This document shows positions 2,230 to 20,243 of a stretch of DNA of 20,243 nucleotides, one piece after another (within the stretch, counting starts at the first letter, position 1; each line of letters begins with the position of its first letter). Both the position numbers and the translations under genes were made by a program. The stretch is from UHGV virus genome UHGV-0098135; one strand, given 5' to 3'. The notes under the pieces are model-generated. The model was not told where the DNA came from and did no database searches. It saw nothing but the letters and a program-made list of their open reading frames with translations. The stretch comes from a virus.

Positions 2230-2251
2230 GCCTCGCGATGCGGGGCTTTTT
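2230..2251 (+). terminator. Intrinsic terminator 1 downstream of the lysis cassette
   Basis: GC-rich hairpin GCCTCGC-GAT-GCGGGGC followed by TTTTT. Confidence 0.5.
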
Positions 2252-2258
2252 GCAATAA

Positions 2259-2283
2259 ATGCGTACCGCAACGCATGTTTTTT
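2259..2283 (+). terminator. Intrinsic terminator 2 (tandem) downstream of the lysis cassette
   Basis: Hairpin ATGCGT-ACCGCA-ACGCAT followed by G and TTTTTT. Confidence 0.5.
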
Positions 2284-2398
2284 ACACCGAACCTGCCCCT
2301 TTGGAATGGGCCTTTGAGGATACCAGTTAGTGCTGGCGAGCCTCGGTGGGCTGGTTTCCTGTGCGGCAAAGGTTCATTTCAAAGAGTAGGTACACGCT

Positions 2399-3156: not shown

Positions 3157-3450
3157 CCATTACAAAGCCCATTTACGGGTGGGCTTGATAATGAAACCGG
3201 AATTTATTCTGGGTAACCAGTTACGGCAGTACAGCGAAACAACCCAAGCCAGTAAGTGGGGAAATAACACTGGCAGCCACTGAAAGATGAACCTCCTGCC
3301 TTATGGCAAAAAAGATTCTTTGTGGTGGCGGACTGATGGAAAGACATCGGTTATTGCAGAGGCCATTCAATGAGTGGTCTCGACAATGGCTTATACCCTG
3401 CACGGGATAACTTAACTGATATCCCTTTTAACGGATAAACGGAGCCAACA

Positions 3451-3693
3451 ATGGCAGAGATTATTCCCATGACTGAAGAACAGAAATTCCAGTTAGAGAT
3501 TTACAAACTGGTCATGAACCAGAACGCAGCCGCAGAAGAAGCATTTCAGTTCATTGGCACTGACGAGCTGAAGCTTGAGCTATTCAAAATTCACTTCCAG
3601 TCAGGCGGCGCTAATTCGGATATCACGATCCGCACATTCGAAGCGGTACGTAAATCGAAGGAGGCGTTAGACCTGTTCACCGCTGGAGTGTGA
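3451..3693 (+). CDS. Hypothetical protein, 80 aa
   Basis: ATG preceded by GGAG (ACGGAGCCAACAATG); acidic, probably helical; stop is 1 nt before the next ATG (coupled). Confidence 0.6.
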   Translation: MAEIIPMTEEQKFQLEIYKLVMNQNAAAEEAFQFIGTDELKLELFKIHFQSGGANSDITIRTFEAVRKSKEALDLFTAGV

Positions 3694-3694
3694 T

Positions 3695-4084
3695 ATGGCT
3701 AAGGCCAAATGGCACAAACTCCCGGCGTTCACCATTCCGCTGTTTCAAAGTGCACATGTCTACCTCGCAACAACCAGAGAACAGTTTCAGCACGCTGATA
3801 AATTCCTTGGCGGCAGCGGGGATGAGAAGCCATTCAATCTTGGGTTTGCAAGCAACTATGAAAACACTGATACGGGTGAGCGATGCTATCTGATTGGAGT
3901 ATTCGATCAGCAGATCGCTACGCTCGTTCATGAGTGCGCCCACGTCTGCTTTTACGTTTGCTCTGATGTCGGCGTGACGACAAGGCCTGAAGATGCCAAC
4001 GAGACGTACTGTTACATGCTGGACAGGATGGTTAATCACTTCCTGCCATTCATTCAGGAGAAACAAGATGTATCACTGGAATAA
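3695..4084 (+). CDS. Hypothetical protein, 129 aa, with HExxH motif (LVHECAHV) and a downstream Glu; putative minimal zinc-metallopeptidase-like protein
   Basis: Starts 1 nt after the upstream stop. HECAH followed about 20 residues later by PEDANE resembles a gluzincin-type metal site. Function inferred from the motif only. Confidence 0.55.
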   Translation: MAKAKWHKLPAFTIPLFQSAHVYLATTREQFQHADKFLGGSGDEKPFNLGFASNYENTDTGERCYLIGVFDQQIATLVHECAHVCFYVCSDVGVTTRPEDANETYCYMLDRMVNHFLPFIQEKQDVSLE

Positions 4085-4262
4085 TCAATCCCCTTATTGC
4101 CAATGCCAACGCTGCCCGTGCTGCGGGAAGATTGTTAACCAATTTACTGGCAATAATTTCTTCAAGACTGGTTATGGATATGGTGTTGCGGGTAGCGTTA
4201 ATTGCTCTGGGGCTGCTGCTGAAACGACATCAAACACAGGCAAGCAGAAAGGAGCTAAGTAA
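4068..4262 (+). CDS. Possible small Cys-rich protein, 64 aa (CQCQRCPCC cluster)
   Basis: ATG at 4068 preceded by AGGAG (CAGGAGAAACAAGATG); overlaps the 3' end of the upstream ORF by 17 nt; its TAA stop overlaps the next ATG (TAATG). Contained in the track ORF 3993..4262, whose start is not an ATG. Confidence 0.35.
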   Translation: MYHWNNQSPYCQCQRCPCCGKIVNQFTGNNFFKTGYGYGVAGSVNCSGAAAETTSNTGKQKGAK

Positions 4263-4351
4263 TGGTAATCAAAGTTTGTTCAGGCTCTCAGGGCTTCGAC
4301 AACCCATCCAAATTCCGCGATGAATGGGATAAGCAAGCAGAAGGGAAATAA
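4262..4351 (+). CDS. Possible small ORF, 29 aa ([29 protein letters not shown])
   Basis: Strong Shine-Dalgarno AAAGGAG 6 nt upstream of the ATG; TAATG coupling to the upstream ORF; ends 5 nt before the terminase small subunit start. Too short for the ORF track. Confidence 0.3.
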
Positions 4352-4356
4352 TCAAT

Positions 4357-4845
4357 ATGGCAGCACCAAAGGGCAACCGATTTTGGGAGGCCCGCAGTAG
4401 TCATGGGCGAAATCCTAAATTCGAATCGCCTGAGGCGCTGTGGGCTGCTTGTTGTGAATACTTCGAGTGGGCTGATGATAACCCGCTATGGGAGGGTAAG
4501 GTATTTTCATATCAGGGAGAAATAATTAAGGCTAATGTCCCTAAGATGCGAGCCATGACTATTTCAGGATTGTGTACCTTCCTTGATATCACCAGGCAAA
4601 CGTGGGGAACCTTCCGGTCAATGGAAGGTTTTTCTGACGTCACATCACGAGCGGAAGACATCATCTACGACCAGAAATTCTCTGGCGCAGCCGCTGACCT
4701 TCTCAACGCTAACATCATCGCCCGTGATTTGGGCCTCAAAGAGCAGTCGCAAGTTGAAGACGTGACACCTGATAAGGGAGATCGCGATAAGCGGCGCTCT
4801 CGTATCAAGGAGCTATTCAACCGTGGAACTGGACGCGATTCTTGA
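4357..4845 (+). CDS. Terminase small subunit (P22 gp3-like)
   Basis: 162 aa, the size I recall for P22 gp3, and I recall the N-terminus [39 protein letters not shown] as P22 gp3. Sits immediately upstream of the large terminase. Confidence 0.85.
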
Positions 4846-6319
4846 TAACCTGAGCGACGAAGAGCAAATCGAGTTGCTCGAGCTACTCGAAGAAGAAGAG
4901 AACTACCGGAACACACACCTGCTATATGAATTTACGCCATACAGCAAACAGCGTGAGTTCATCGACGCTGGGCATGACTATCCAGAGCGCTGTTTTATGG
5001 CTGGTAACCAGCTTGGTAAGTCATTTACTGGTGCTGCTGAAGTCGCGTTTCACCTTACAGGGCGTTATCCGGGCACAAAAGGCTATCCTGCTGATGGTAA
5101 ATATGGCGGTGAGTGGAAAGGTAAGCGTTTCTATGAGCCTGTTGTCTTCTGGATTGGCGGCGAGACAAACGAGACTGTAACCAAAACGACTCAACGCATC
5201 CTGTGCGGTCGTATCGAAGAGAATGATGAGCCTGGCTACGGTTCCATACCGAAAGAAGACATCATTAGCTGGAAGAAGTCTCCTTTCTTTCCGAACCTTG
5301 TTGATCATCTTCTGGTTAAGCATCACACGGCTGATGGCGTTGAAGATGGCATTTCAATCTGCTACTTCAAACCATACTCGCAAGGCCGTGCTCGCTGGCA
5401 GGGTGACACAATCCACGGCGTGTGGTTTGACGAAGAGCCACCATACAGCATTTATGGAGAAGGGCTTACCCGTACCAACAAATACGGGCAATTCTCAATT
5501 CTGACGTTTACCCCGCTGATGGGGATGTCTGACGTTGTTACCAAGTTCCTGAAGAATCCCAGCAAGTCGCAGAAAGTGGTCAACATGACCATCTACGACG
5601 CTGAGCACTACACCGACGAGCAGAAAGAGCAAATCATCGCATCCTATCCCGAGCATGAGAGAGAGGCGCGTGCTCGCGGTATTCCTACGATGGGTAGTGG
5701 TCGAATCTTCCAGATACCGGAAGAGACTATTAAGTGTCAGCCGTTCGAGTGTCCTGATCACTTCTACGTCATCAATGCAATGGACTTCGGATGGGATCAC
5801 CCACAGGCACATATCCAGCTTTGGTGGGATAAAGACGAGGACGTGATTTATCTTTCTCGCGTCTGGAAGGCCAAACAGAAGAAGGCGACAGAGGCATGGA
5901 GTGCTGTTAAAGCATGGAGCAAAAACACCCCTACAGCTTGGCCTCATGACGGGCATCAGCACGAAAAGGGAGGCGGCGCTCAGCTCAAGGAACAATACGC
6001 CGACGCTGGGTTCGACATGTTGCCAGATCATGCAACATGGCCTGATGGAGGTAATGCGGTCGAACCCGGGATAGCAGAGATACGCGACATGATGCTCGAC
6101 GGTCGTTTCAAGGTATTTAACACCTGCGAGCCATTCTTTGAAGAGTTTCGCCTGTATCACCGCGATGAGAACGGGAAGATCGTCAAGCTAAATGACGACA
6201 TCCTTTCTGCTGTTCGCTATGGCTACATGATGAGGCGTTTTGCAATACAGATGCGAGACATCAAAGATCCTAAAGAGATTGATTACTCAAGCTACAACAT
6301 ACCTTGCGGAGTTGGATGA
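4823..6319 (+). CDS. Terminase large subunit (P22 gp2-like), ATPase/nuclease
   Basis: 498 aa. The start codon at 4823 is GTG, with AAGGAG about 10 nt upstream. Walker-A-like motif AGNQLGKS; overlaps the small subunit by 23 nt; canonical position. Confidence 0.85.
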
Positions 6320-8520
6320 TGGCTGATGATAGAAAGATGGCTGACTGGCATCGCAAGGTGCTGTGCAACTTTGATAATGCCTGGTCAGCAACGCAGGATA
6401 TGCGTGAGCAGATTATTGAGGCTCAACGTTTCGTCCGGGTATCCGGCGCACAGTGGGAAGGCAGCACAAACGCTGGTTACTCATTTGATGAAGGCAGGTT
6501 TGAGCATTACCCGCGCTTTGAACTGAATAAGGTTTCCCGTGAATGTGATCGCATCATTGGCGAGTATCGACAGAATCGCATCAGCGTTAAATTCAGGCCG
6601 AAGGACGATAAGGCATCGGAAGCGTTAGCCGAAAAGATGAACGGCAAATTCCGCGCTGACTATCAGGAAACATCCGGTGGCGAAGCGTGTGATAACGCAT
6701 TTGATGATGCTGTAACGGGCGGATTCGGTTGTTTCCGCATGTGTGCCGATTACGAAGATGAAATGGATCCGAGTAACGAGCAACGCCGTATAAGCCTTCT
6801 TCCTGTTTACGACCCAGCGACATGCGTCTTCTTCGATCAGGACAGCAAGCAATATGACCGCTCTGATGCTATGTGGGCTATGGAAATGTTCTCCATGACG
6901 CCTAAAGCGTTCGAGGCTGAATACCCTGACTCCATCGCGGCAAGTCTTTCTCGTGATGACACTGGTACTCAGTATGACTGGTCAACGCCTGATGCCATCT
7001 ATGTTGGACGCTACTACGAAGTTCGCATAGAGAAGGTGAAGCTCACGGCGTGGCGCAACCCTGTCAGCGGAGAAACGGCAATCTATGATGAAGAGCAAAT
7101 CAAAGATATTGTCGACGAGCTGACCGATGGCGCATTCGAACTGATTGGCGAGCGGACAGTGAAGAAACGCCGCGTTTATTGCGGCCTTCTGTCTGGCGCT
7201 GAATGGCTGGAAGAACCGAAGCGTATTCCGGGCGAACATATTCCTCTCATCCCGGTATATGGGCGTCGCTCATTTGTTGATAATCAGGAACGAATCGAAG
7301 GCCACGCAGCAAAAGCGATGGATGCACAGCGTCTTGAGAACCTGATGGTTTCCATGATTGCAGATAACGCTACTCAGGCGGGCGGTGATGGCATTCCTAT
7401 CGTGGATGTTGATTTCATTCCCGGTCCATTAATGAATCACTGGGCAGAGAGGAATAAGAAAAGACCTGCAGTTCTTCCCATGACCAGCAAGAAGGACAAA
7501 AACGGAACAGTCATTTCAGAAGCTCAGGTTGCTGGCTGGACACCTCCGACACAAATGCCTCCTGCTCTTGCCGGGCTATTGCAGTACACCGGAACGGCTA
7601 TTCAGCAAATTACAGGTGCGTCGCAGCTTGAGAACATGCCGAGCAACGTCGCTACCGATACCGTTGATAGCATCTTTAACCGGATGGACACGCAGTCCTA
7701 TATCTACATGGACAACATGGCTAAATCCATGCGCCGTGCTGGCGTCGTGTGGCTTTCTATGGCTCGTGAAGTCTATGGCAGTGATACGCCGATGCGTATC
7801 GTTAATGAGGACGGCAGCGATGACGTGGCGCTGATGACTGGTGAAGTGGTTGACCGTCAGACAGGGCAGGTTATCGCGCTTAACGACCTTTCGCAGGGTA
7901 ACTATGAAGTGACTGTCGATGTTGGTCAGTCGTTCGCTACTCGCCGTGATGCAACGGTTAAGTCGTTACTTTCCATGCTGGCACTTATCCCACCAGGAAC
8001 GCCGAAGCACGACCTTGTGTCGTCGATGATTCTCGACAATATGGACGGCGAAGGGATGGACGACCTTAAAGAATACAACCGCAATCAGTTGCTTCTGTCT
8101 GGAGTTATCAAGCCGAGAACACCAGAAGAACAGCAGATGGTTGAGCAGGCAAAACAACAACAGGCCAGTCAGCCAGATCCGGCTATGGTTGCAGCGCAAG
8201 GTCAGCTTCTTGCTGGTCAGGCTGAATTGCAGAAAGCGCAGAACGAACAGGCAGCCATTCAGGTTAAAGCATTCCAGGCACAGACTGATGCTCAGGTTGC
8301 AGCGGCAAACGTTGTGAAAATCCTCGCATCTGCTGATAGCCAGCAGAAATCTGATATCCGCGAGGCTCTGAAACTGCTCGGACAGTTCCAGCAACAGCAA
8401 GGAGACAATGCCCGTGCTGATGCAGAGCTTGTCCTGAAAAGTCAGGCACAGGGCCATGCGCAGCGCATGGACATCAGCAGCATCCTGCAAAAATCAACTC
8501 AGCAACAACCACAGCAGTAA
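6319..8520 (+). CDS. Portal protein (P22 gp1-like) with long Gln-rich C-terminal helical extension
   Basis: Start chosen at ATG 6319 ([15 protein letters not shown]...), which aligns with the recalled P22 portal N-terminus MADNENRL...; ATG 6316 is an alternative and the track's 6304 is a TTG. Internal segment IPGEHIPLIPVYG matches the recalled P22 portal IAGEHIPIVPVFG. C-terminal ~140 aa is Q/A-rich. Confidence 0.88.
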   Translation: MADDRKMADWHRKVLCNFDNAWSATQDMREQIIEAQRFVRVSGAQWEGSTNAGYSFDEGRFEHYPRFELNKVSRECDRIIGEYRQNRISVKFRPKDDKASEALAEKMNGKFRADYQETSGGEACDNAFDDAVTGGFGCFRMCADYEDEMDPSNEQRRISLLPVYDPATCVFFDQDSKQYDRSDAMWAMEMFSMTPKAFEAEYPDSIAASLSRDDTGTQYDWSTPDAIYVGRYYEVRIEKVKLTAWRNPVSGETAIYDEEQIKDIVDELTDGAFELIGERTVKKRRVYCGLLSGAEWLEEPKRIPGEHIPLIPVYGRRSFVDNQERIEGHAAKAMDAQRLENLMVSMIADNATQAGGDGIPIVDVDFIPGPLMNHWAERNKKRPAVLPMTSKKDKNGTVISEAQVAGWTPPTQMPPALAGLLQYTGTAIQQITGASQLENMPSNVATDTVDSIFNRMDTQSYIYMDNMAKSMRRAGVVWLSMAREVYGSDTPMRIVNEDGSDDVALMTGEVVDRQTGQVIALNDLSQGNYEVTVDVGQSFATRRDATVKSLLSMLALIPPGTPKHDLVSSMILDNMDGEGMDDLKEYNRNQLLLSGVIKPRTPEEQQMVEQAKQQQASQPDPAMVAAQGQLLAGQAELQKAQNEQAAIQVKAFQAQTDAQVAAANVVKILASADSQQKSDIREALKLLGQFQQQQGDNARADAELVLKSQAQGHAQRMDISSILQKSTQQQPQQ

Positions 8521-8610
8521 TTAACCCATAACGTGCAATGGCTGTCTTTATGAGGCCTGGCACCATATTGCCTTCCGATGGGCTGAACATCGAGTAAACA
8601 GGGGTAACAA

Positions 8611-9504
8611 ATGGACCAGATGGCAGAAAACACACCAGAAGTTGAAATCGAAACCGACGCGTCAGAGCAGATTCCTGATGATGTCGAACTGGCTGAAGAA
8701 GTCGAAACAGAAGATGGCAGTGAGTCATCCGGCAATGATGTAGAGGAAGCTACTGAAACTGATGACGACGAATCAGAACAGGAATTCTACTTTGGTGACG
8801 AAAAGCTGGATTCGCCAACCAGCGAAGATGGCGCAGAGCATGGACTGGTAAAACACCTGCGCAAGACGATTAAAGAGAAAGACCGTGAGCTGAAAGAGCT
8901 GATGCGTCAGTCTCAGAAACCCGTCGAGCAGCAGCCGGTAATCACTCAACCACCGCGAATGCCAAAACTGGATGATGAGGACATCGGTTTCGATGAAGAA
9001 ATCTATCAGCAACGCATGGCTAAGTGGGCAGAGGATAACGGCAAGTACCAGCAACAGGAGATGGCTCGCAAGCAGAAGGAGCAGGAGCTTCAGGCTGCTT
9101 ATCAAGAGCGATTATCCAAATATCAGCAACGTGTTAAGGCTCTCAAGGTTCCTGGCTATCAGGAAGCAGAACAGGCCGTACTCGAGGAAATCCCCATCGA
9201 GACACAAAACGCGATCCTGTTTGAGTCAGAGAAGCCGGAAATCGTTGTTCTGGCGCTTGGTCGCAACGCTGAACTGCGCAAGCAACTGGCAGAAGCTACC
9301 AACCCCGTAGCAATTGGTCGTCTGCTGGAACGTATCGAATCTAAGGCCAGAATCATGCCAAAAGCAAAAACCACGGCAGCCACAACCCCGACAGTTAAGG
9401 GGAGCAACGGCGCAGTAATCAATAACCTCGACAAACTGAAAGCCAAGGCGCTGGAAACTGGTGACTGGACGCCGTATTTCGCCGCTAAAAAGGCAAAAAA
9501 ATAA
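8611..9504 (+). CDS. Scaffolding protein (P22 gp8-like)
   Basis: 297 aa between portal and coat; highly acidic N-terminal region, central charged helical region, and a basic C-terminal coat-binding-like tail (KLKAKALETGDWTPYFAAKKAKK). Confidence 0.8.
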   Translation: MDQMAENTPEVEIETDASEQIPDDVELAEEVETEDGSESSGNDVEEATETDDDESEQEFYFGDEKLDSPTSEDGAEHGLVKHLRKTIKEKDRELKELMRQSQKPVEQQPVITQPPRMPKLDDEDIGFDEEIYQQRMAKWAEDNGKYQQQEMARKQKEQELQAAYQERLSKYQQRVKALKVPGYQEAEQAVLEEIPIETQNAILFESEKPEIVVLALGRNAELRKQLAEATNPVAIGRLLERIESKARIMPKAKTTAATTPTVKGSNGAVINNLDKLKAKALETGDWTPYFAAKKAKK

Positions 9505-9522
9505 CCTATCGGAGCATTAAGC

Positions 9523-10776
9523 ATGGCTAACCAATTAGCAAAAGACCTTGAAATCATGTTCGAAAACTACGTTGAAGGCTTTGAGGCCGCCTGCGTAGTT
9601 TCCCGCAACGCTAAAAAATTCCGTCCCGGTGATACAGCAATGCAGCGAGCAGGTGATGTTCTGTATCGTCCGCAGCATTACCACATGAATATTGAGGAAG
9701 GTCTCGACCTCAGCAGCAAAACGCCAACAGCACTGGTTCAGCGCCTTGTTCCTTCTGTGTTCAAGGAGCCGAAAAACATTCTGTACACTCTGGATGCGCG
9801 TGAAATGCGTGACCCGGAACATAAAACTGAAGCTGGTCGCGCCGCAGGTATGCGCCTTGCTGCACAGATTGACTCTGACCTGATTTCCATGGTCACGCAG
9901 CGTGCTACTAACGTGATCACGATGGCTGACTCAACCACAGGTACACAGGGCCGTGATTTGTGGAACTGTGCGGCAGGCATTGATGCCACCATGACGGCGA
10001 TTGGTGTACCTCAGGGTATCAACCGTCGCTCTTTCTGGAACCCCTTCAACTACAAAGATCTTGCTGGCGAGCTTGGTCACCGTGCCTATGCTCAGGGCGC
10101 AACCCTGACAGCATACGAAAAAGCGCAGATCCCTCCGGTTGCTTCCTTTGATAGCTACAAGACCGATATTTCTGGTCGTGTTCCGAAGGGTACAGCAACT
10201 TCCATTACGCTGGCAGCAGCACCTGCGCACAAGGTTGAAGCGAAAGATGCTAACGATATGCCAGTGGATAACCGACAGGGGACCATTACGGTATCTGCTG
10301 AAGGTTTGCAGGTTGGCGATGCGTTTACCATCGCAGGGGTGAATTCCGTACACCAGATCACCAAAGATACCACCGGGCAGCCGCAGGTATTCCGCGTTCT
10401 GGCAGTTAGCGGAACGACAGTAACTATCTCCCCGAAAATTCTGCCGCCTGACAACGCGGATGTCGCCAGCCGTCCATATGCAAACGTTGATGCTAATGCG
10501 GCAAGTAGCGCAGCAATCACCATTCTCAACAAAAATGCCGCACCGGCTAACCTGTTCTGGGCTGATGGTTCTGTTGAACTGATGTACGGCAAACTGGCGT
10601 TCCCAACTGGTCAGGGGCCACAGGTAATGACGGCAACCACCGAGCAGGGCGCTACGCTGATCATGTCTTACGCCTTCGACCACATCAAAGGCGTAACCAC
10701 TGCTCGTTTCACCACTCTGTACGGTTGCTCTGTACTTGTTCCTGAATATACGGGCATCGTTATTGCCGGGCAGTAA
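9523..10776 (+). CDS. Major capsid (coat) protein (P22 gp5-like)
   Basis: 417 aa, preceded by GGAG; canonical position after the scaffold gene; shares segments with the recalled P22 coat (MQRAGDV versus MQRSSNT; YANVDANA...NLFWADGS versus YANVNTSL...NVFWADDA). Confidence 0.85.
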   Translation: MANQLAKDLEIMFENYVEGFEAACVVSRNAKKFRPGDTAMQRAGDVLYRPQHYHMNIEEGLDLSSKTPTALVQRLVPSVFKEPKNILYTLDAREMRDPEHKTEAGRAAGMRLAAQIDSDLISMVTQRATNVITMADSTTGTQGRDLWNCAAGIDATMTAIGVPQGINRRSFWNPFNYKDLAGELGHRAYAQGATLTAYEKAQIPPVASFDSYKTDISGRVPKGTATSITLAAAPAHKVEAKDANDMPVDNRQGTITVSAEGLQVGDAFTIAGVNSVHQITKDTTGQPQVFRVLAVSGTTVTISPKILPPDNADVASRPYANVDANAASSAAITILNKNAAPANLFWADGSVELMYGKLAFPTGQGPQVMTATTEQGATLIMSYAFDHIKGVTTARFTTLYGCSVLVPEYTGIVIAGQ

Positions 10777-10783
10777 TTTTGGT

Positions 10784-10806
10784 GGGGCTTCGGCCCCATT
10801 TTTATT
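10784..10806 (+). terminator. Intrinsic terminator immediately after the coat gene
   Basis: Hairpin GGGGC-TTCG-GCCCC followed by ATTTTTATT. Confidence 0.55.
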
Positions 10807-10817
10807 GGGAGAAGACA

Positions 10818-11006
10818 ATGGCACGAACAATGCTCTATAAGCCGGGCAACATGATCACCTGTGGTCAGTTTGCTGTCGATTACATCATTGTTGATGACGA
10901 AGAAGTTAAATCTCACCTGAAAAAAGGCTGGGTAAAAACTCCTGAAGAAACCGCAACGAAGCATAAAGTGGCTAAGGCGGAAGAAGATGGCGAAAACGAA
11001 GGGTGA
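10818..11006 (+). CDS. Hypothetical small protein, 62 aa
   Basis: ATG at 10818 preceded by GGGAGAAG (the track's start at 10779 is a TTG inside the terminator); overlaps the gp4 start by 20 nt. Confidence 0.45.
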   Translation: MARTMLYKPGNMITCGQFAVDYIIVDDEEVKSHLKKGWVKTPEETATKHKVAKAEEDGENEG

Positions 11007-11448
11007 TCTCGTTCTTAAGGCTTTACGAAAAGCCGGGCTGTATTCCAATGCCACGTTGACAGATGCTGACCCTCAGGCAATTGAAGATGCCATTAATGAC
11101 CTCGAAGACATGATGGCAGCATGGCAGGCTAAAGGTATCGAGCTTGGATATCAGTTTGCTGATACAGAAAACGGCATCATGCCGTTACCTGACGATGATT
11201 CAGGTATCCCTGCATGGGCAAATGATGGCGTCGCCTTGAAACTCGCTGTGCAAGTGTGCATGGATAACGTCATTCAGCCGTCAGACGCTCTCCTTACCGC
11301 TGCTGACAGTGCATACCAGACAATTTGCATCGCTTTAACCAAAATACCACCACTTGAGCGGCGAAATGACATGCCTCGCGGTAGTGGTAACAAAAGCGCG
11401 TTTACGTGGAATCGGTTTTACATCGAGAAAGATGATCCGAGTACGTGA
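10987..11448 (+). CDS. Head-to-tail adaptor / tail accessory factor (P22 gp4-like)
   Basis: 153 aa; N-terminus KTKGDLVLKALRKAGLYSNATLTDADPQAIEDAINDLEDMMAAW matches the recalled P22 gp4 (KTKGDLVRAALRKLG...ATLTD...DLEAMMAEW); canonical position. Confidence 0.8.
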   Translation: MAKTKGDLVLKALRKAGLYSNATLTDADPQAIEDAINDLEDMMAAWQAKGIELGYQFADTENGIMPLPDDDSGIPAWANDGVALKLAVQVCMDNVIQPSDALLTAADSAYQTICIALTKIPPLERRNDMPRGSGNKSAFTWNRFYIEKDDPST

Positions 11449-11457
11449 GGTGAATAA

Positions 11458-12876
11458 ATGCCGATTCAGCAACTTCCGCTTATGAAAGGTGTCGGCAAAG
11501 ACTTTCGAAACGCCGACTATATCGACTATCTGCCAGTGAATATGCTGGCTACACCCAAAGAAATCCTGAACAGCAGCGGATATCTTCGCTCATTCCCGGG
11601 CATTGCCAAACGTTCTGATGTGAACGGTATATCGCGCGGCGTCGAGTACAACATGGCGCAGAGTGCTGTTTATCGCGTGTGTGGTGGCAAGCTGTATAAG
11701 GGCGAAAGTGAAGTCGGTGATGTTGCCGGAAGTGGTCGTGTATCAATGGCGCATGGTCGGACATCTCAGGCGGTAGGCGTTAATGGTCAACTGGTCGAGT
11801 ATCGCTATGATGGCACGGTTAAAACCGTCTCAAACTGGCCTGCAGACAGCGGATTTACGCAGTATGAGTTAGGTTCAGTCCGCGACATTACACGCTTACG
11901 TGGGCGTTATGCGTGGTCAAAAGACGGCACTGATTCATGGTTTATCACTGACCTTGAAGACGAATCGCATCCTGACCGCTACAGCGCACAATATCGCGCA
12001 GAGTCTCAGCCTGACGGAATCATCGGCATCGGTACATGGCGAGACTTCATAGTCTGCTTTGGTTCGTCGACGATTGAATATTTCTCCCTGACTGGTGCAA
12101 CCACTGTTGGGGCTGCTCTGTATGTCGCACAGCCATCGCTGATGGTGCAGAAAGGCATTGCTGGGACTTACTGCAAAACGCCATTCGCTGATTCTTATGC
12201 GTTCATCAGCAATCCGGCAACAGGTGCGCCGTCTGTATACATCATCGGCTCCGGTCAGGTGTCACCAATCGCCAGCGCGAGCATTGAGAAAATCCTCCGC
12301 TCCTACACTGCTGATGAACTGGCTGATGGCGTGATGGAATCGCTGCGATTTGATGCGCATGAGCTGCTGATTATCCATCTTCCGCGCCATGTCCTCGTAT
12401 ACGACGCATCTTCAAGTGCCAATGGTCCGCAATGGTGTGTACTGAAAACAGGCCTGTATGACGATGTGTACCGCGCTATCGACTTCATTTACGAAGGCAA
12501 TCAAATAACGTGCGGCGATAAGCTGGAGTCCGTGACCGGGAAATTGCAATTCGATATCAGCAGCCAGTACGACAAGCAACAGGAACACCTGCTGTTTACT
12601 CCGTTGTTCAAAGCGGATAACGCCAGATGCTTCGATCTGGAGGTGGAATCATCCACTGGCGTAGCTCAGTACGCCGACCGCCTGTTCCTCTCTGCAACCA
12701 CTGACGGCATCAATTACGGACGTGAGCAGATGATTGAGCAGAATGAACCGTTCGTTTACGACAAACGCGTTTTGTGGAAGCGAGTCGGGCGCATCAGGAA
12801 AAATGTCGGCTTCAAATTGCGCGTTATCACGAAGTCACCTGTCACTCTTTCTGGCTGCCAGATAAGGATTGAGTAA
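11458..12876 (+). CDS. Tail hub / tail accessory factor (P22 gp10-like)
   Basis: 472 aa, the size I recall for P22 gp10; position between gp4 and the needle gene. Confidence 0.8.
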
Positions 12877-13577
12877 TGGCAGATTCATCACTGAATAATC
12901 CTGTCGCGGTTCAGGCTACGCGCCTTGATGCTTCAATTTTGCCACGCAATATCTTCTCGCAGTCGTATCTGCTGTACGTTCTCGCGCAAGGTACTGATGT
13001 TGGTAACGTGGCTAACAAGGCCAACGAGGCCGGACAGGGCGCTTATGATGCACAGGTCAGGAACGATGAGCAGGATGTTATTCTGGTCGATCACGAAGAA
13101 AGAATTCGTCAGCTCCGCATCGACGTAGACGACCATGAAATCCGTATTACTGCAAATACCAATGCAATCGCGTCGCTGGATGTCAGACTAACCACGGCTG
13201 AAGGAGAAATAGTCACCTTACAGGCTGACGTCAGCGCTCTTGATGGCCGGGTTACGACTGCTGAGAGCAACATTTCTGCATTAAAGGACGACTATGTATC
13301 GAAAACAGCCACTGCAACACAATCGCTGGCATCTCCCCTCAATGTAACAACATCCTATTCGGTCGGCGGCACCAAGGTTATTGGTGCTCGTCAGACAGGG
13401 TGGACAGCGGCTACAGGTACGGATCTTCGCGGCTCATTCAACGCTAACCAGACATACACGGTAAGTGCCACATACACACGGTCTGAGATGTCGGCTATGG
13501 CTACAGGATTGCAGCAGGCGCGGCAGCGTATCAAAGCTCTGGAAGATGCATTACGGACTCATGGGTTGATTGACTGA
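12876..13577 (+). CDS. Tail needle / plug protein (P22 gp26-like), trimeric coiled-coil fibre
   Basis: 233 aa; N-terminus [43 protein letters not shown] and C-terminus [14 protein letters not shown] closely match the recalled P22 gp26; heptad-like repeats in the middle; TAATG overlap with gp10. Confidence 0.88.
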
Positions 13578-14032
13578 TGATTACATTCAAACCAACGCGA
13601 AACATCGACCTGATCGAAGCAGTCGGAAATCACCCTGACATTATTGCCGGGAGTAACAACGGTGATGGATACGACTACAAGCCTGAATGCCGTTACTTTG
13701 AGGTGAACGTGCACGGTCAGTTTGGCGGCATTGTTTACTATCAGGAAATTCAGCCGCTTACATTCGATTGCCACGCCATGTACCTGCCAGAGATTCGCGG
13801 CTTCAGCAAGGAAATTGGGCTGGCGTTCTGGCGATACATTCTGACTAACACCACCGTTCAGTGCGTCACATCGTTCGCTGCACGCAAATTCCGCCACGGT
13901 CAGATGTACTGCGCAATGATTGGCCTTAATCGTGTAGGAACCATCAAGAAATACTTCAAAGGCGTGGATGACGTGACATTTTACAGTGCTACACGCGAAG
14001 AACTAATCGACTTCCTGAATCACGGGAGATAG
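13577..14032 (+). CDS. gp14-like protein (position of P22 gene 14; exact role not recognised)
   Basis: 151 aa; TGATG overlap with the needle gene; assignment by synteny (P22 order 4-10-26-14-7-20-16). Confidence 0.6.
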   Translation: MITFKPTRNIDLIEAVGNHPDIIAGSNNGDGYDYKPECRYFEVNVHGQFGGIVYYQEIQPLTFDCHAMYLPEIRGFSKEIGLAFWRYILTNTTVQCVTSFAARKFRHGQMYCAMIGLNRVGTIKKYFKGVDDVTFYSATREELIDFLNHGR

Positions 14033-14034
14033 CC

Positions 14035-14727
14035 ATGTTATATGCATTTAAGCTGGGCAGAAAACTGCGCGGCGAGGAACCTTATTGCCCTGAAAAAGGC
14101 GGGAAAGGTGGTAGCTCTGATAAAAGCGCAAAGTATGCAGCAGAAGCTCAGAAGTATGACGCAGACCTGCAAAATCAGCAGTTCAACACCATCATGAACA
14201 ACCTGAAGCCGTTTACTCCTCTGGCTGAGAAGTATGTCGGCAGCCTCGAGAACTTATCGTCTCTGGAGGGGCAAGGTCAGGCACTTAACCAGTATTACAA
14301 CTCTCAGCAGTACAAAGACCTTGCAGGTCAGGCTCGCTATCAGAGTCTGGCGGCAGCGGAAGCAACAGGTGGATTGGGTTCCACTGCAACCAGTAATCAG
14401 TTAGCAACAATCGCACCAACGCTTGGTCAGCAATGGCTATCTGGACAAATGAACAATTACAACAACCTGGCAAATATCGGTCTTGGCGCTCTTCAGGGGC
14501 AGGCAAACGCCGGGCAAACATATGCCAACAACATGAGTCAGATTTCACAGCAAAGCGCGGCGCTGGCTGCGGCAAACGCCAACCGACCGTCAGCATTGCA
14601 GCAGGGGGTTAGTGGTGCTGCATCCGGTGCGCTTTTGGGTGGTGGCATAGCCAGTGCTCTCGAGCTATCAACTCCGTGGGGTGCTGGTATCGGTGCTGGT
14701 CTTGGTCTGCTTGGCTCGTTGTTTTAA
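14035..14727 (+). CDS. Ejection (injection) protein gp7-like
   Basis: 230 aa; N-terminus MLYAFKLGRKLRGEEPYCPEKGGKGGSS matches the recalled P22 gp7; Gly-rich hydrophobic C-terminus (GGGIASALELSTPWGAGIGAGLGLLGSLF). Confidence 0.8.
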   Translation: MLYAFKLGRKLRGEEPYCPEKGGKGGSSDKSAKYAAEAQKYDADLQNQQFNTIMNNLKPFTPLAEKYVGSLENLSSLEGQGQALNQYYNSQQYKDLAGQARYQSLAAAEATGGLGSTATSNQLATIAPTLGQQWLSGQMNNYNNLANIGLGALQGQANAGQTYANNMSQISQQSAALAAANANRPSALQQGVSGAASGALLGGGIASALELSTPWGAGIGAGLGLLGSLF

Positions 14728-14737
14728 GGGGTAATCA

Positions 14738-16102
14738 ATGGCTACGTGGCAACAGGGTATTAATTCTGGTGGTTTTCTGGCTGGCATCGGTACGCAAAAT
14801 GAGAATGCGCCAAAGGCAAGCGACATTAACGCAACGCTTGGTCTGATCCGCGAAAACAATGAACTGGCTCGCTCAGGTGCAAATAACGTTGGTCTGACCG
14901 CGTTACGTGGTCTGGCTGGAGTTGCTGATATTTATAAGCAGGAACAGCAACAGAAAGCGATTAATGCGTTCAATAAGGTTCATGCTGATGCATGGGCTTC
15001 TGGTGATCCATCGGGACTATTTAAGTTTGCCAAGGAAAATCCAGCGTTTGTTGCGCAGGCACAACAGGCGTTTTCCGGTCTTAATGAGCAGCAACGCAAC
15101 GATATGGGCGATTTAGCCATGAGGGCTAACGTCGCTCTTTCTCAGGGACCGGAAGCCTACAGTAAATTCATTACTGACAACAAGGACAGGTTAAATCGTG
15201 TGGGTGCGAATGCTGACTGGATGATTCAGACAGGTATCCAGAATCCAGAGCAGCTATCACACATGCTGACTACTATGTCTCTCGGTGCGCTTGGACCAGA
15301 AAAGGCGTTTGCTGTTCAGGACAAGATGGCTGGTCGTGAAATTGACCGAGGCAGACTGGCAGAGACAATCCGCAGCAATCAGGCTGGCGAGGCGCTAACA
15401 GCGCGTGGTCAGAATATCACGATGCGCGGTCAGGATTTATCGATGCAGAGAGCATCAATGAAAGGGTCGGTTGGGAATAATGAGCGTACAGTTCAGTTAG
15501 CAGATGGCAGAACTGTAACGGTAGGCGGGAAGCTTCACGGCGCTGGGGCTAATGCGTTCTACGAAGGTATCGACAACGAGGGGAATATGGTTCGCGTCCC
15601 TGCTGGCTCTATTGCCGCTCCGGCTACATCGGCAGCAAGCGCGCAGAATTACGCAATGAAGAAAGATCTTGATGCAATTTCTGGTGCATCAATTGACGAT
15701 CTTGGCTTCATGACTGGCATTACAGGCTCTTCAGGTTCTCCTGCTCTTGGTGCAGATATTCGTAGCCGTGCATCTGGTGGTGATCAGAGGAAACTATACA
15801 ACGCTGCACAGCGAATCCAAGGAAAGATGCAGAATCAGGGCATTGCAGCAGCCAGAGACATGGGGGCATCCGGTATCAACACCGTTGCAGAAGCAAAGAT
15901 GTATTTTCAAGGTATGCCACAGGTTGATTTCTCAAGCCCTGAAGCACTGCAACAATCAATGCGCGACATTCAGCAATATACCGACAATTACAACCAACAA
16001 TATAACGTTAATGTTGGTAAATCTCAGCGGCAGCAATCTCAACCTACACAGGTATCACAGCCAGCAGCCAGCAGTAACTTTTCTTCACTATGGGGTGATT
16101 AA
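14738..16102 (+). CDS. Ejection protein gp20-like
   Basis: 454 aa, in the gp7-gp20-gp16 order; Gly/Ala/Gln-rich low-complexity composition typical of ejection proteins. Confidence 0.75.
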
Positions 16103-17970
16103 TGGCTAAAGCATGGAAAGATGTTATCGCCTCTCCACAGTATCAGGCGTTAACTGAAGAACAGAAAGCACAGGCTCAAGCGCAATATTTTGATGAGGTT
16201 GTTGCCCCTAAGGCTGGTGACAAATGGGCTGAAGCAAGAGATCAGTTTTATGCAGCATACCCTCCGCCTCAGCAGCAGAAAGAAGAACCATCATTGATGC
16301 AACAAGCTGGTGATTGGCTCACAGGTGGTCAAAGTGCAGGGCAAATTGCAGAGCAGGCTGGTCGTGGTCTGGTAAACATACCATTCGACGTATTACAGGG
16401 CGGCGCAAGCCTGATTAATGCAATCAGCCAGGGGCTTGGTGGCCCCAAGGTTTTGGATGATGTTTATCGTCCAGTCGATCGACCGACAGACCCCTACGCG
16501 CAAGCCGGTGAAACAATTGGCGGGTATTTAGTTCCAGGAGTTGGAACGGCAGGAAGCATGGCTATTGGATCACTGGCAGAGGCCGCAAATCAGAAAGGCG
16601 ATTTCGCACAAAATGCAACTAAAAATGCCGGAGTTAACCTTGCCGCTCAGGGTGTTCTTTCCGCAGCAGCAAAGGGAATAGGGCGTGGAATTACTGCTGT
16701 TCGTGGCGAAATATCACCAGCAGATCAGCAATTGCTCAAGCGTGCCGCTGCGGCAGATGTACCAGTTATGACATCGGATGTAGTTCCTCCAAAAACAAAA
16801 CTTGGCAATCAACTGCAGGGTTACTCAGAAGGAGTCATAGCTGGGACTGGACCAATGAGAGCCGCACAGCAGGATGCCAGAACCAAGCTTGTTAATCGCT
16901 TCACCGAAAAATACGGCGACTACGATCCATCTGTAGTCGTTGATAGTCTAAAGTCAGGCGTTGCAAGGGAAAAATCGTTAGCCAAGTCAAAACTAAACAG
17001 CCTGTCAGGAAGAATGGTTGGAAAGCCAGTTGATACAAGTGGCGCCATAAGAGCTATCGACGGAGCAGTAAACGAACTTGGGAAACTTAAAGGTGTTTCT
17101 GACACCCAGACCATTTCTGCGCTTAATGATTATAAGAATGCCATTCAGGAGATAACAAATGGAGATGATGCCTTTGAGTTACTTGATAAGCTGAGAACTC
17201 AGTTCCGCATTGACGTAAAAGGCGATCGTACAGTTCTGCCATCAATGTCGCAAACAATGGTCGACAGGGTCTATAACTCGCTAACCAATAGCCTTAGTAA
17301 ATCTATAGCGAAAGGACTTAGCCCAAAAGATGCTTCAGCATGGAGAGCGGGAAAAGCTGATTATGCAAAAATGGCAACACATGTAACTCAAACGCGCCTT
17401 AAAAACGTTCTAAACAAAGGAGATTTAACTCCCGAGGCTGTAAATACCATTGTGTATGGACAATATGGGTCAGATATAGCTCGATTGTACGGGAAACTCG
17501 ATCAAAAAGGTAAAGACATGCTAAGGGCGGCATATATCAGCAAAATAGCTGACAAGGTAGGTGACAGCCCTCAGAAAATGATGACCGAGCTTGGCAAGCT
17601 GCAAAAACAAGCAAATGGTCAGGTGTTTAAAACTGTATTTGGTGGGAAGAACGGAAAAGAGATAGAGGGGATGTTATCTATTCTCGATGCTACCAAAAGA
17701 GCATCTGAGGCTAATGTTGTGACGAAGACTGGCATGACACTCGCGCCTTTGGTAAGGGTTATTGGTAACCTAAAAACCGGAGGCGCGCTATTGGCTGGGG
17801 AAACAGGGATTGGCCTTATGTCGAGGGTTTATGAAAGCCCTATGGCCAGGAATGCTCTCTTACGTTTGGCAAACACCAAAGCAGGAACACCAGCCTATGA
17901 AAGAGCGCTAAATAATGCTGCAAATGCGATACGCCCTATACTTTCAAGCCAAATTACAGCAGAACAATAG
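16102..17970 (+). CDS. Ejection protein gp16-like
   Basis: 622 aa; TAATG overlap with gp20; last gene before the tailspike, as in P22-like phages. Confidence 0.75.
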   Translation: MAKAWKDVIASPQYQALTEEQKAQAQAQYFDEVVAPKAGDKWAEARDQFYAAYPPPQQQKEEPSLMQQAGDWLTGGQSAGQIAEQAGRGLVNIPFDVLQGGASLINAISQGLGGPKVLDDVYRPVDRPTDPYAQAGETIGGYLVPGVGTAGSMAIGSLAEAANQKGDFAQNATKNAGVNLAAQGVLSAAAKGIGRGITAVRGEISPADQQLLKRAAAADVPVMTSDVVPPKTKLGNQLQGYSEGVIAGTGPMRAAQQDARTKLVNRFTEKYGDYDPSVVVDSLKSGVAREKSLAKSKLNSLSGRMVGKPVDTSGAIRAIDGAVNELGKLKGVSDTQTISALNDYKNAIQEITNGDDAFELLDKLRTQFRIDVKGDRTVLPSMSQTMVDRVYNSLTNSLSKSIAKGLSPKDASAWRAGKADYAKMATHVTQTRLKNVLNKGDLTPEAVNTIVYGQYGSDIARLYGKLDQKGKDMLRAAYISKIADKVGDSPQKMMTELGKLQKQANGQVFKTVFGGKNGKEIEGMLSILDATKRASEANVVTKTGMTLAPLVRVIGNLKTGGALLAGETGIGLMSRVYESPMARNALLRLANTKAGTPAYERALNNAANAIRPILSSQITAEQ

Positions 17971-18020
17971 ATAAATAATTAATTAAGTACATAACTACTG
18001 ACAGATAACCAACGCAACGA

Positions 18021-18044
18021 CCCAGCTTCGGCTGGGTTTTTTTA
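18021..18044 (+). terminator. Intrinsic terminator after the ejection-protein operon
   Basis: Hairpin CCCAGC-TTCG-GCTGGG followed by TTTTTTT. Confidence 0.6.
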
Positions 18045-18101
18045 TGCCCAAAATTCACCGTAGCCACGCTGCGGCGATTCCTTGTATCTGGAGCAAATTA
18101 A

Positions 18102-20243
18102 ATGACAGACATTACAGCCAATGTGATCGTATCGATGCCTTCGCAACTTTTCACTATGGCGCGTTCTTTTAAAGCGGTTGCCAATGGCAAAATTTATATC
18201 GGTAAAATTGACACGGACCCCGTAAATCCAGAAAACCAGATTCAGGTTTATGTAGAGAACGAAGATGGCTCTCACGTTCCTGTTTCGCAACCAATCATCA
18301 TTAATGCTGCTGGATATCCGGTATATAACGGACAGATTGCCAAGTTTGTAACTGTGCAAGGTCATTCTATGTCTGTGTACGATGCATATGGATCACAGCA
18401 GTTCTATTTCCCTAATGTGCTGAAGTACGACCCTGATCAATTTGAGATTAGGCTTTCTAATCAAGACGGCGCTGGTCTTGTTGGGATTATGCCATATGGC
18501 ACGGTACAGGATGCCATCAAATGGGTTGTCCCCGAGGTATTCCCCGGAAGTAATGCGTCAGAAAAATTACAGGCAGCTGTAAATTATGCGGTTGCAAACA
18601 AAACGAGAGTTGTAGCATCAGGTGTGTACGATGTAACGGCCCCCGTCACCATCCCAGGAGACATCATTATCGATGCTTCTACTGGAGAATTTACCTTCAA
18701 TGGCATTGATTATATTTTCCATCCGCTTGGCGCAAAATCAGTAGAGATTATCGGTGGTAAGTTCACCGCAAATGCATACCACACCCAGCGTCCTCAGGTA
18801 ATTTTCAATGATTACCCTGATGGGCTGGCGAATTTGCCAACGCGAGTGGTGATAAAAGATATGCAATGCTTTAACTGCGGTGTTGGCTACATCATGGTTA
18901 ACTGTCAGGACCCAACCAGCGTACATGTCTCAGTTGATAATAACTACTGCAAGACTGATGACAACACAGATCAGTATATCTCTGATGCAGGAATGTCAGG
19001 TGAACATGGTGAGGTATATCCATATCTGATGATTCTTGGCAACACGACTGCATCCGTCGACATTGGGACGCCTCGCAAGTCAATGTTCCACGTAACGAAT
19101 AACACCTTTGATGTTTTTATGCAGTCAGGTGGTAACTCAGATATTTATAAAATAGGTGGTGCAACAACAGGAGGAATTTCTACATCCAACAGATTTATTA
19201 ACCGTAACACAGAAGCAGCCTGTGAAGTTGATACCTTTACTGGTGGTCTTGAAAGTGTTTTTGATAATAACACGCTTTGGAACGTGTCCATTAAGGTTAT
19301 GACACTAGGGATTAGTGGCGGCCCAAGGATTGGTCTTGGAGGTAGAAGTTCAGTTAGTAATAACGTCATGCATTTTGAGAAAAATCCACTTAATGATTTT
19401 GGAATATGGTTAAGAACATCACTGGTAAATGTATGTAACAATGTTATTTATTATGTTGGATCTGATAACCCCTCAGAGCAACGTATATTTAACGGAATTT
19501 CAGGGCGAAAATTAGATAATAATAACAATGGATTTGGTGGTTATTGGTGTGCTGGTAATAACGTATCCAACAACATAATTCAAATTATTACAGGTGAAGT
19601 TGACAAATCTGTTAGAGTGCAATGCATCGATCCTACTGATTTCGCTGGGAGCGTTTTTAATGGAAATTGTCTTTTTGGTGGTAATGGTATGGTGATAGAT
19701 GCAAGACCTGAAAGAAATAGAAATGTCTGGAGTGGTAATTATATAAGCTCTGGTCTATTTTCTGGTGAGAATATATGGAGAATGAATTCCGCATTCGTTG
19801 GCGGAAGTAATTATATTGGAAATTCTTACGATAACTCTGTTCGTGGTCCACATCTTTTAAGAAAGGAAATACCAGCTCAACAAGATGGGAGTATAATAAG
19901 AATTACATTGGATTATGCGATAAATAATGGATACGCTTCAGACAGATGTCTTTATCTCTTAATGGTAAAAGTTAATGGTGGGATTAAAAATAACTATCAG
20001 ACATTTGTTGTCTCTTCTGGAGCTCACGATGCGCAAGATCTAAAGCCAGCAATAGACGAAAGAATAAACCCAAACACAACTGACAACAATTTAAAACAAA
20101 TATCATTTAGAGCTGGTTATACAGGTTCTAGTGGGCTAATTGTTTTGCAGGCAAGGGGTAATTATTATTCATCAGGAAATCCACCGACATCTATAGAATA
20201 TTCTATTATACCGTTAACAGCAAACTTCCCCATGGCATTTTAA
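18102..20243 (+). CDS. Tailspike protein: conserved P22/HK620/Sf6-type head-binding N-terminal domain fused to a divergent beta-helix-like receptor-binding module
   Basis: 713 aa, ATG preceded by GGAG, TAA at 20241-20243. The first ~110 aa (MTDITANVIVSMPSQLFTMARSFKAVANGKIYIGKIDTDPVNPENQIQVYVENEDGSHVPVSQPIIINAAGYPVYNGQIAKFVTVQGHSM...LKYDPDQF) match the recalled HK620/Sf6/P22 tailspike head-binding domain. The remainder is rich in Asn, Gly and Cys, with repetitive short strands typical of right-handed beta-helices. Confidence 0.9.
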   Translation: MTDITANVIVSMPSQLFTMARSFKAVANGKIYIGKIDTDPVNPENQIQVYVENEDGSHVPVSQPIIINAAGYPVYNGQIAKFVTVQGHSMSVYDAYGSQQFYFPNVLKYDPDQFEIRLSNQDGAGLVGIMPYGTVQDAIKWVVPEVFPGSNASEKLQAAVNYAVANKTRVVASGVYDVTAPVTIPGDIIIDASTGEFTFNGIDYIFHPLGAKSVEIIGGKFTANAYHTQRPQVIFNDYPDGLANLPTRVVIKDMQCFNCGVGYIMVNCQDPTSVHVSVDNNYCKTDDNTDQYISDAGMSGEHGEVYPYLMILGNTTASVDIGTPRKSMFHVTNNTFDVFMQSGGNSDIYKIGGATTGGISTSNRFINRNTEAACEVDTFTGGLESVFDNNTLWNVSIKVMTLGISGGPRIGLGGRSSVSNNVMHFEKNPLNDFGIWLRTSLVNVCNNVIYYVGSDNPSEQRIFNGISGRKLDNNNNGFGGYWCAGNNVSNNIIQIITGEVDKSVRVQCIDPTDFAGSVFNGNCLFGGNGMVIDARPERNRNVWSGNYISSGLFSGENIWRMNSAFVGGSNYIGNSYDNSVRGPHLLRKEIPAQQDGSIIRITLDYAINNGYASDRCLYLLMVKVNGGIKNNYQTFVVSSGAHDAQDLKPAIDERINPNTTDNNLKQISFRAGYTGSSGLIVLQARGNYYSSGNPPTSIEYSIIPLTANFPMAF

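Follow-up and report, generated by a model that had tools for sequence, protein, structure and literature searches.

Results

A tailspike gene closes the structural module of a P22-like prophage

The viral DNA analysed here is the 20,243-nucleotide UHGV virus genome UHGV-0098135 (the window), and its last open reading frame (ORF), which is a real gene, encodes a tailspike equivalent to that of P22 gene 9 (Table 1). We conclude that this is the tailspike of a P22-like prophage, that its gene arose by intragenic recombination between old alleles and that the receptor of its product is probably the O153/O178-type O-antigen; to this explanation as a whole we assign a probability of roughly 0.7.

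The tailspike gene is the final gene of a P22-like late/structural operon. On a contig identical to the window over positions 8102-20243, the order of the genes by Pfam family is P22_portal, P22_CoatProtein, P22_Tail-4, Phage_stabilise, P22_gp7, Inj_translocase, Phage_P22_gp16 and then the tailspike, which sits after the ejection-protein genes (the gp7, gp20 and gp16 homologues) of a P22-like genome. Upstream of the receptor-binding domain (RBD) of the tailspike the window shares approximately 95% nucleotide identity with the P22-like phages JEP4, phiv205-1 and CUS-3, and this similarity stops at nt ~18440. A 23,298 bp contig from JGI sample 3300045988 is identical to positions 8102-20243 of the window, and an IMG/VR contig of equal length from the same sample (UViG_3300045988_129221) encodes the RBD at 100% identity. 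The exact tailspike protein is encoded on metagenome contigs where it adjoins Acyl_transf_3, integrase, yfdC and mlaA genes; on the identical contig the tailspike is followed by a convergent gene for a 335-residue Acyl_transf_3 protein, the integrase gene, and then yfdC and mlaA. Since annotated prophages have a tRNA-Arg between the integrase gene and yfdC, we assign the window to a P22-like (Lederbergvirus-type) prophage residing at tRNA-Arg (argW)/yfdC of Escherichia coli, of which it forms the structural module.

The N-terminal domain of the protein is the conserved tail-hub adaptor. PF09008 (Head_binding) matches residues 1-113 over the full length of its profile (1-113) with an E-value of 2.5e-66 and a score of 221 bits, against a cutoff of 24, and structures 7sg7, 8tvr and 1lkt are matched in the PDB. 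The initial annotation of this DNA, which was made by reading the sequence, described the first ~110 residues as nearly identical to the HK620, Sf6 and P22 tailspikes; this holds for HK620 (108/113 residues) and Sf6 (104/113), but identity to P22 is only 76% (86/113). At the DNA level the head-binding region is present at 87-94% identity in approximately 1,100 E. coli genomes and in many P22-like phages, with the similarity ending at gene nt ~338-346. Homology to the tailspikes of siphovirus swi2 and others of the PF18668 type starts at gene nt 364 (residue ~122). The profile phrog_8280, labelled ‘tail spike protein with colonic acid degradation activity’, matches residues 1-235 (window 18102-18806), and several other tailspike PHROGs also extend beyond the head-binding domain, reaching residues ~170-235. 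Other tailspike families may, from these profile matches, share the initial turns of the receptor-binding part.

The receptor-binding part is a predicted β-helix of a small family

Beyond the adaptor, the protein belongs to an RBD family that is small and uncharacterised, and for which there is neither a Pfam model nor a solved structure. A Pfam search of the window protein identified no family other than PF09008, and no SGNH/GDSL hydrolase domain; a sequence search of the PDB gave no chain that matched past residue ~142, including those of the P22, Sf6 and HK620 tailspikes. When the family profile was compared with HK620 using hhalign, the alignment was confined to the N-terminal ~190 HK620 residues and did not reveal homology between the β-helices. 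Mapping of catalytic residues from HK620 by this comparison failed, as the N-terminal region alone aligned. The sequence does, however, match phrog_29018 (PHROGs, function unknown) with an E-value of 0 and 1529.8 bits, residues 19-713 aligning with positions 1-694 of the 694-position profile, and the RBD alone scores 1305 bits. At 90% identity the family falls into 38 clusters, with about 300 member sequences in all, out of 5.8 billion proteins. An exhaustive phmmer search of 1.84 billion 50%-identity representatives returned 22 matches, ten of them with E-values of 1e-30 or below; the weakest of the 22 bear depolymerase-type domains. The adaptor that precedes the RBD is of one of two kinds that are not related to each other, namely PF09008 (in P22-like prophages) or PF18668 (in siphovirus swi2, among others), and in some members a C-terminal SGNH/GDSL domain has been added.

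An AlphaFold2 prediction based on a 28-sequence alignment gave a confident monomer model (predicted local distance difference test score (pLDDT) 84.9, predicted template modelling score 0.85). In the model, residues ~116-713 form a cap helix, a long right-handed parallel β-helix and a C-terminal β domain, so that a β-helix body is predicted as the initial annotation had anticipated. RBD residues 1-23 have low pLDDT, and a helix is seen at RBD residues 37-51. Searching with the model in Foldseek identified the Det7, AM24, Sf6, HK620 and phi92 tailspikes at approximately 10% identity and with template modelling (TM) scores of 0.35-0.45. The earlier view that this part of the protein is unlike the P22 and HK620 modules is therefore borne out in sequence, but not in fold, since they share the right-handed β-helix class.

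The most conserved patch of the family spans residues 337-382, within which D337, Q341, N345, D347, K350, N363, N367, N369, E375, D377 and the FTGG motif at 379-382 are invariant. The weak, distant matches from the exhaustive search align to this same patch. D337, D347, E375 and D377 fall on successive predicted β-strands ~28-40 residues apart. On the basis of this conservation we regard the patch as a candidate catalytic centre.

The gene is a recombinant of old alleles

Comparison with other family members shows that most E. coli relatives have 90-100% identity over residues 116-350, and that identity then drops abruptly to 50-67% over residues 351-713. This second part is collinear with every other family member, with two gaps at most, and 42 positions in residues 351-570 are invariant in the 28-sequence alignment, which indicates that the 3′ half is a divergent allele of the same family. 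The collinearity, the 50-67% identity to sister alleles and the presence of conserved motifs throughout rule out an unrelated foreign module. The AT-rich half of the gene, first thought to be such a module, is instead an old divergent allele that has been swapped in by homologous recombination.

The window gene can be divided into segments matching three different relatives (Table 1), the match to the O178:H19 prophage allele running from nt ~1261 to the end, with crossovers near gene nt 295-536, ~1024 and 1261-1283. The M9-type boundary at ~1024 adjoins the most conserved patch of the family, and the 1261-1283 crossover falls inside the conserved motif HFEKNPLNDFG (residues ~423-433). The last 260 nt of the segment resembling P0002 (19126-19384) already have low GC content at third codon positions (GC3) and differ from the M9 type. 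Divergence at four-fold degenerate sites is 0.00-0.04 in most of the shared segments (with a maximum of 0.09) and 0.59-0.71, that is saturated, in the divergent ones. This difference indicates that old alleles have been joined by recent homologous exchanges. By these sequence comparisons, recombination within the gene has combined M9/E62-like, P0002-like and O178:H19-prophage-like parents, consistent both with the adaptor/RBD mosaic that was originally proposed and with the suggestion that the RBD had been acquired in more than one piece.

The relatives themselves differ in organisation. The tailspikes of the O178:H19, SY038 and BKQWHE prophages have a different middle section (gene nt 826-1260; positions 6826-7260 of locus L001), which shares 63-75% nucleotide identity with the window and has a GC3 that is lower still, at 0.12-0.32; the low-GC allele begins ~200-450 nt earlier in these prophages than in the window gene. 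P0002 (946 residues; locus L009, 2625-5465) and P0015 (959 residues) are relatives of the window tailspike that are 100% identical to it over residues 116-420 and carry an SGNH/GDSL domain (PF13472) at residues ~738-931 and ~751-944, respectively. This domain may be an O-antigen deacetylase appended to a β-helix spike.

A low-GC tract spans the 3′ end of the gene and the adjacent acyltransferase

The GC content falls from 0.498 over nt 1-18101 to 0.436 over 18102-19200 and 0.361 over 19201-20243. No 1-kb interval of the window has a lower GC content than the one that begins at 19101 (0.359), which lies ~4 standard deviations (SD) under the mean of 0.491 (SD 0.032). GC3 changes most clearly at codon 335 (nt 19107), dropping from 0.439 to 0.235 (z 5.8); computation therefore agrees with the AT-richness from ~19100 that had been noted by eye. 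Within the 3′ segment of the window allele GC3 is 0.20-0.26, as compared with 0.19-0.44 for the same region of M9, E62 and swi2, and codon usage is strongly biased (16 ATA versus one ATC, and 21 GGT versus three GGC). The C-terminal halves of other alleles also tend to have a GC3 (M9 0.26-0.44, swi2 0.19-0.44, P0002 0.20-0.34) that is lower than that of their 5′ parts (~0.36-0.48), although for E62 the two barely differ. GC3 is already falling before the tailspike gene is reached: it is 0.49-0.55 in the head and portal genes, and 0.43 (14738-16102) and 0.37 (16102-17970) in the ejection-protein genes.

The low-GC tract is not confined to the 3′ half of the gene, as had first appeared, but runs past the stop codon into the convergent acyltransferase gene (GC 0.307), with the integrase gene back at 0.474. 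The tailspike 3′ part and the acyltransferase gene together make up a low-GC island of ~2.3 kb that ends at intS/argW.

The protein is dense in asparagine, as initially noted (10.0% overall, and 12.7% in residues 351-713). Sister alleles of higher GC content are also Asn-rich (M9 11.1%, swi2 10.6%), and we therefore attribute this property to the fold or family rather than to AT bias, an explanation that the composition of those alleles rules out. The description of the protein as Cys-rich does not hold, since its ten cysteines (1.4%) are an ordinary number and HK620 has more (2.2-2.6%).

Searches for a donor of the low-GC segment were negative. Residues 430-713 used alone as query gave only one extra fragment, a scan of species-representative genomes in GTDB found nothing, and the 22 matches of the exhaustive phmmer search, which have no taxonomy attached, identified no donor lineage. 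Acquisition from a lower-GC source, as initially suggested, is thus plausible, but it has to be set against the missing donor and the tendency of other alleles to low GC3 in their C-terminal halves; import of the segment from a low-GC organism is possible.

Tailspike and acyltransferase alleles are paired

The tailspike and acyltransferase genes are 38 nt apart, with a bidirectional terminator-like hairpin between them. When 5,426 complete E. coli genomes were searched, the gene for the 335-residue acyltransferase was found in exactly the three that have the low-GC tailspike allele. More generally, at every retrieved locus that has an acyltransferase, each type of tailspike C-terminus goes with its own acyltransferase allele, without exception. 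The window-type C-terminus is paired with the 335-residue enzyme (six independent sources), the M9 type with a 651-residue Acyl_transf_3+SGNH enzyme, the P0002 type with a 65%-identical variant of the M9-type enzyme (650 residues, Acyl_transf_3+SGNH), and the Hafnia-like type with a 45-52% variant. The GC content of the linked acyltransferases is 0.31-0.37. The 335-residue Acyl_transf_3 protein is presumptively an O-antigen O-acetyltransferase.

E. coli BKQWHE (NZ_CP170298; locus L006, 5180-10484) has a prophage remnant between emrY and tRNA-Arg which consists of two gene fragments, an Arc-like gene, the tailspike, the 335-residue acyltransferase and intS. Here the receptor-recognition/modification end has been kept and the remaining phage is gone.

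Carriers of the tailspike have the O153/O178 O-antigen cluster

Matches to the tailspike that extend beyond the adaptor were found by megablast in six of the 5,426 complete E. coli genomes, a survey in which alleles of less than ~85% nucleotide identity could be missed. Three carry the low-GC allele (O178:H19 2012C-4431, SY038 and BKQWHE) and three the M9-type allele (M9, M6 and E62). The O-antigen cluster of 2012C-4431, in which wzx and wzy are annotated as ‘O153/O178 family’, was located (NZ_CP024289, 760.5-767.8 kb; locus L012, 12544-19791); its GC content is 0.28. The O153/O178 wzx/wzy genes are present in only 16 of the 5,426 genomes (0.3%), and all six carriers are among those 16, with none among the other 5,410 (Fisher p 2e-16; M6 and M9 are near-clones). 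In ten of the 16 genomes with the cluster no tailspike of this family was detectable by megablast.

The association agrees with the published rule that Lederbergvirus prophage tailspikes follow the O-serogroup of their host; the subtypes validated in that study include neither O153 nor O178 (PMC10408124). As all six carriers have the O153/O178 wzx/wzy genes, the O153/O178-type O-polysaccharide is the probable receptor of the window tailspike, in line with the early proposal that it would target an O-antigen or capsule different from those of the characterised P22-like tailspikes.

Elements flanking the gene

Only 131 nt (17971-18101) separate the gene-16 (ejection protein) homologue from the tailspike gene, and this spacer contains a hairpin (Table 1). 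An Arc/Mnt-family (immI-like) gene occupies the corresponding position in the M9, E62 and P0002 loci; there is none in the window, which indicates that the window phage is without that region. An antisense ORF of 107 codons on the minus strand (18042-18365), over the head-binding coding region, is without support and probably spurious.

Table 1. Features in and around the tailspike gene. Coordinates are those of the window; aa, amino acids of the tailspike.
Feature	Position	Strand	Remarks
Terminator-like GC-rich hairpin (18019-18038) and T-run	18019..18045	+	Pattern scan of the identical contig and sequence reading
GGAG, Shine-Dalgarno-like motif	18090..18093	+	8 nt 5′ of the ATG; sequence read directly
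Tailspike gene (P22 gene 9 equivalent)	18102..20243	+	713 codons, with the stop at the last base of the window
Head-binding (tail-hub adaptor) domain, aa 1-113	18102..18440	+	PF09008
Linker/neck and N-terminal cap helix of the receptor-binding part, aa 114-168	18441..18605	+	Alignments and model
Right-handed parallel β-helix, aa ~169-550	18606..19751	+	Predicted O-antigen binding/cleaving body
Most conserved patch of the family, aa 337-382	19110..19247	+	Invariant columns of the 28-sequence alignment; straddles the M9-type breakpoint
C-terminal β-sandwich domain, aa ~571-713	19812..20240	+	Most variable part; one invariant residue
Segment common with the M9/E62 allele, gene nt 1-~1023	18102..19125	+	96-100% nucleotide identity; four-fold-site divergence 0.00-0.09
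Segment matching the SGNH-tailed allele P0002, gene nt 295-1283	18396..19384	+	Identical but for one mismatch
Crossover interval between P0002-like and O178-prophage-like parents, gene nt 1261-1283	19362..19384	+	Mismatch maps
Low-GC allele-specific 3′ segment	19385..20243	+	95-100% identical to the O178:H19 2012C-4431, SY038 and BKQWHE prophages; 57-66% amino acid identity to other alleles; GC3 ~0.2-0.26

Discussion

The window tailspike shares its head-binding domain (76-96% identity), gene position, overall architecture (adaptor, right-handed parallel β-helix and C-terminal β domain) and module boundary at residues ~113-122 with the P22 gp9 and Sf6 gp14 endorhamnosidases and the HK620 gp9 endo-N-acetylglucosaminidase. 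It differs from them in having an RBD with no detectable sequence homology to theirs, and the Foldseek matches have TM scores of only 0.35-0.45. Their receptors also differ, being the Salmonella O:4,12-type antigen for P22, that of Shigella flexneri Y for Sf6 and O18A1 for HK620, as against the predicted O153/O178 for the window tailspike.

Among 50,697 records, the only isolated phage with this RBD family is vB_EcoS_swi2 (Swiduovirus), whose ‘tail fibers protein’ (QNR52424.1) is collinear with the window RBD and 92% identical to it over residues 116-350, falling to 58-59% over residues 351-713. swi2 is a lytic siphovirus of uncharacterised specificity; it differs from the window phage in its Tail_spike_N (PF18668) adaptor, its M9-type C-terminal allele of higher GC3 and its lack of an adjacent acyltransferase gene. 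TSP3 of the Agtrevirus AV101 (WJJ54145.1) produces translucent zones on an O153 strain of E. coli and blocks its infection (PMC10791037), and may recognise the same or a related O-antigen as the window tailspike. The two proteins are not relatives, since the best BLASTP match between them has an E-value of 0.059 (in the N-terminal region) and hhalign aligned columns 27-163 only, corresponding to the adaptor and cap. If both target an O153/O178-type polysaccharide, they do so using unrelated receptor-binding modules.

The gene order of the window prophage (tailspike, convergent membrane acyltransferase of the Acyl_transf_3 family, integrase and tRNA attachment site) is that of known serotype-converting podovirus modules, such as Sf6 gene 14-oac-int and HK620 gene 9 with its O-antigen modification gene, in which the modification gene also has a low GC content. 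Unlike in those modules, the recombination unit here cuts the tailspike gene itself, the 3′ ~860 nt and the acyltransferase gene forming a single low-GC block, and the four tailspike C-terminal alleles of the family pair one-to-one with four acyltransferase alleles. The SGNH-esterase tailspike gp63.1 of phage G7C is an O-antigen deacetylase in which the esterase itself is the receptor-binding enzyme. P0002 and P0015 differ in carrying the SGNH domain as an appendage to a β-helix, and the window protein has none; its presence in these relatives points to a role for acetyl groups of the receptor.

Like other tailspikes, the protein would be a homotrimer. Its head-binding domain docks the spike on the tail hub, and the β-helix would bind, and probably hydrolyse, the O153/O178 O-antigen of the host to allow the virion to reach the outer membrane. 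Cleavage may be carried out by an acid pair drawn from D337, D347, E375 and D377. After lysogeny the linked acyltransferase, the gene for which is inherited as one block with the low-GC 3′ segment, would presumably O-acetylate the O-antigen and so modify the receptor.

Two steps of this scheme could be read differently. The β-helix might be a non-catalytic adhesin, a lyase or a deacetylase rather than an endoglycosidase, which we consider unlikely. The invariant D337, D347, E375 and D377 lie on successive predicted strands with a spacing like that of the acid pairs of HK620 (D339/E372), Sf6 and P22, there is no SGNH domain in the window protein, and the published O153 structure has a neutral repeat (Ribf, Gal, GlcNAc, GalNAc), a feature that would speak against a β-elimination lyase. 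That the target is instead a capsule, colanic acid or some other surface glycan, with the O153/O178 association arising from clonal or sampling bias, strikes us as improbable. The fold is equally generic for capsule depolymerases, phrog_8280 with its colonic-acid-degradation label matches the protein, the sister P22-like phage CUS-3 has a K1 capsule endosialidase behind the same adaptor, and the association is drawn from six genomes only. However, those six were obtained from humans, mice and rats across several continents and represent two different alleles, and still they share one wzx/wzy type of 0.3% frequency; the phrog_8280 match spans only the adaptor and the first ~120 residues beyond it, and the tailspike adjoins an Acyl_transf_3 gene in the classical position for O-antigen seroconversion.

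Two further alternatives concern the origin of the low-GC block and the reason why its two genes travel together. The low-GC 3′ half could be a long-standing family trait and not an import, with the window carrying the most AT-rich resident allele of an Enterobacteriaceae AT-rich ‘surface-glycan gene pool’. We see this as a serious contender, if one that we do not favour: the sampled alleles do tend towards lower GC3 in their C-terminal halves (E62 barely), searches outside E. coli prophages turned up nothing closer to the 3′ segment, the linked acyltransferases and the host O-antigen cluster are equally AT-rich, and GC3 is already declining in the upstream ejection-protein genes. On the other hand, the GC3 and codon bias of the segment are far from the usage of E. 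coli or P22-like phages and clearly below that of the sister alleles, the boundary of the low-GC region is sharp, and the saturated synonymous divergence indicates that the segment has long evolved separately. Similarly, tailspike and acyltransferase may be co-inherited by hitch-hiking between recombination-prone conserved regions (the β-helix motifs and intS/attR), without any functional matching. Their close spacing and shared hairpin fit this view, as do the sampling of only four allele classes and the presence of the RBD in lytic siphovirus swi2 without an acyltransferase, and we regard it as tenable, although the balance tilts a little against it. The linkage is complete in all fetched acyltransferase loci and across the 5,426 genomes, despite recombination only a few hundred bases upstream, and the SGNH esterase domain of some alleles suggests that acetylation status matters for the family. 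Precedents exist in Salmonella epsilon15/epsilon34 and Sf6 Oac for tailspike specificity that depends on phage-encoded O-antigen modification.

A more far-reaching idea is that the tailspike 3′ allele and the acyltransferase form a matched ‘recognise-then-modify’ cassette which also underlies the O153/O178 split; taken jointly, these two propositions are doubtful. The O153/O178 backbone would be the same throughout, with every tailspike C-terminal allele adapted to a particular acetylation state of it; the partner acyltransferase, or the fused SGNH deacetylase of some relatives, would then shift the receptor into a form of no further use to the spike encoded with it. Identity between the O153 and O178 gene clusters is reported to be 99.9% (Iguchi et al., as quoted in a passage of PMC4732683), so that a prophage acyltransferase could be the hitherto unexplained genetic basis of the serological difference. 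O178:H19 is the only serotyped carrier, and the literature searched states neither the chemical difference between O153 and O178 nor the serology of the other 15 strains; the acyltransferase as the basis of that difference is speculation.

Modular tailspikes, the swapping of adaptors between podo- and siphoviruses, low-GC seroconversion genes beside tailspikes and prophage spikes that track serogroup are already known. What is new here is a structurally unsolved, unannotated RBD family with a probable receptor, in a serogroup that includes Shiga-toxin-producing strains, and recombination that cuts through the β-helix so that the specificity end moves with the modification gene. The former adds to the tailspike-to-serogroup map on which phage host prediction, diagnostics and the engineering of host range draw. 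The latter is a natural example of recombination inside a β-helix at conserved motifs, with the specificity end travelling alongside an O-antigen-modifying gene, and the crossover motifs indicate joining points for chimeric tailspikes of this family. If the two genes do form a matched cassette, this would provide a testable explanation for two E. coli serogroups with one gene cluster.

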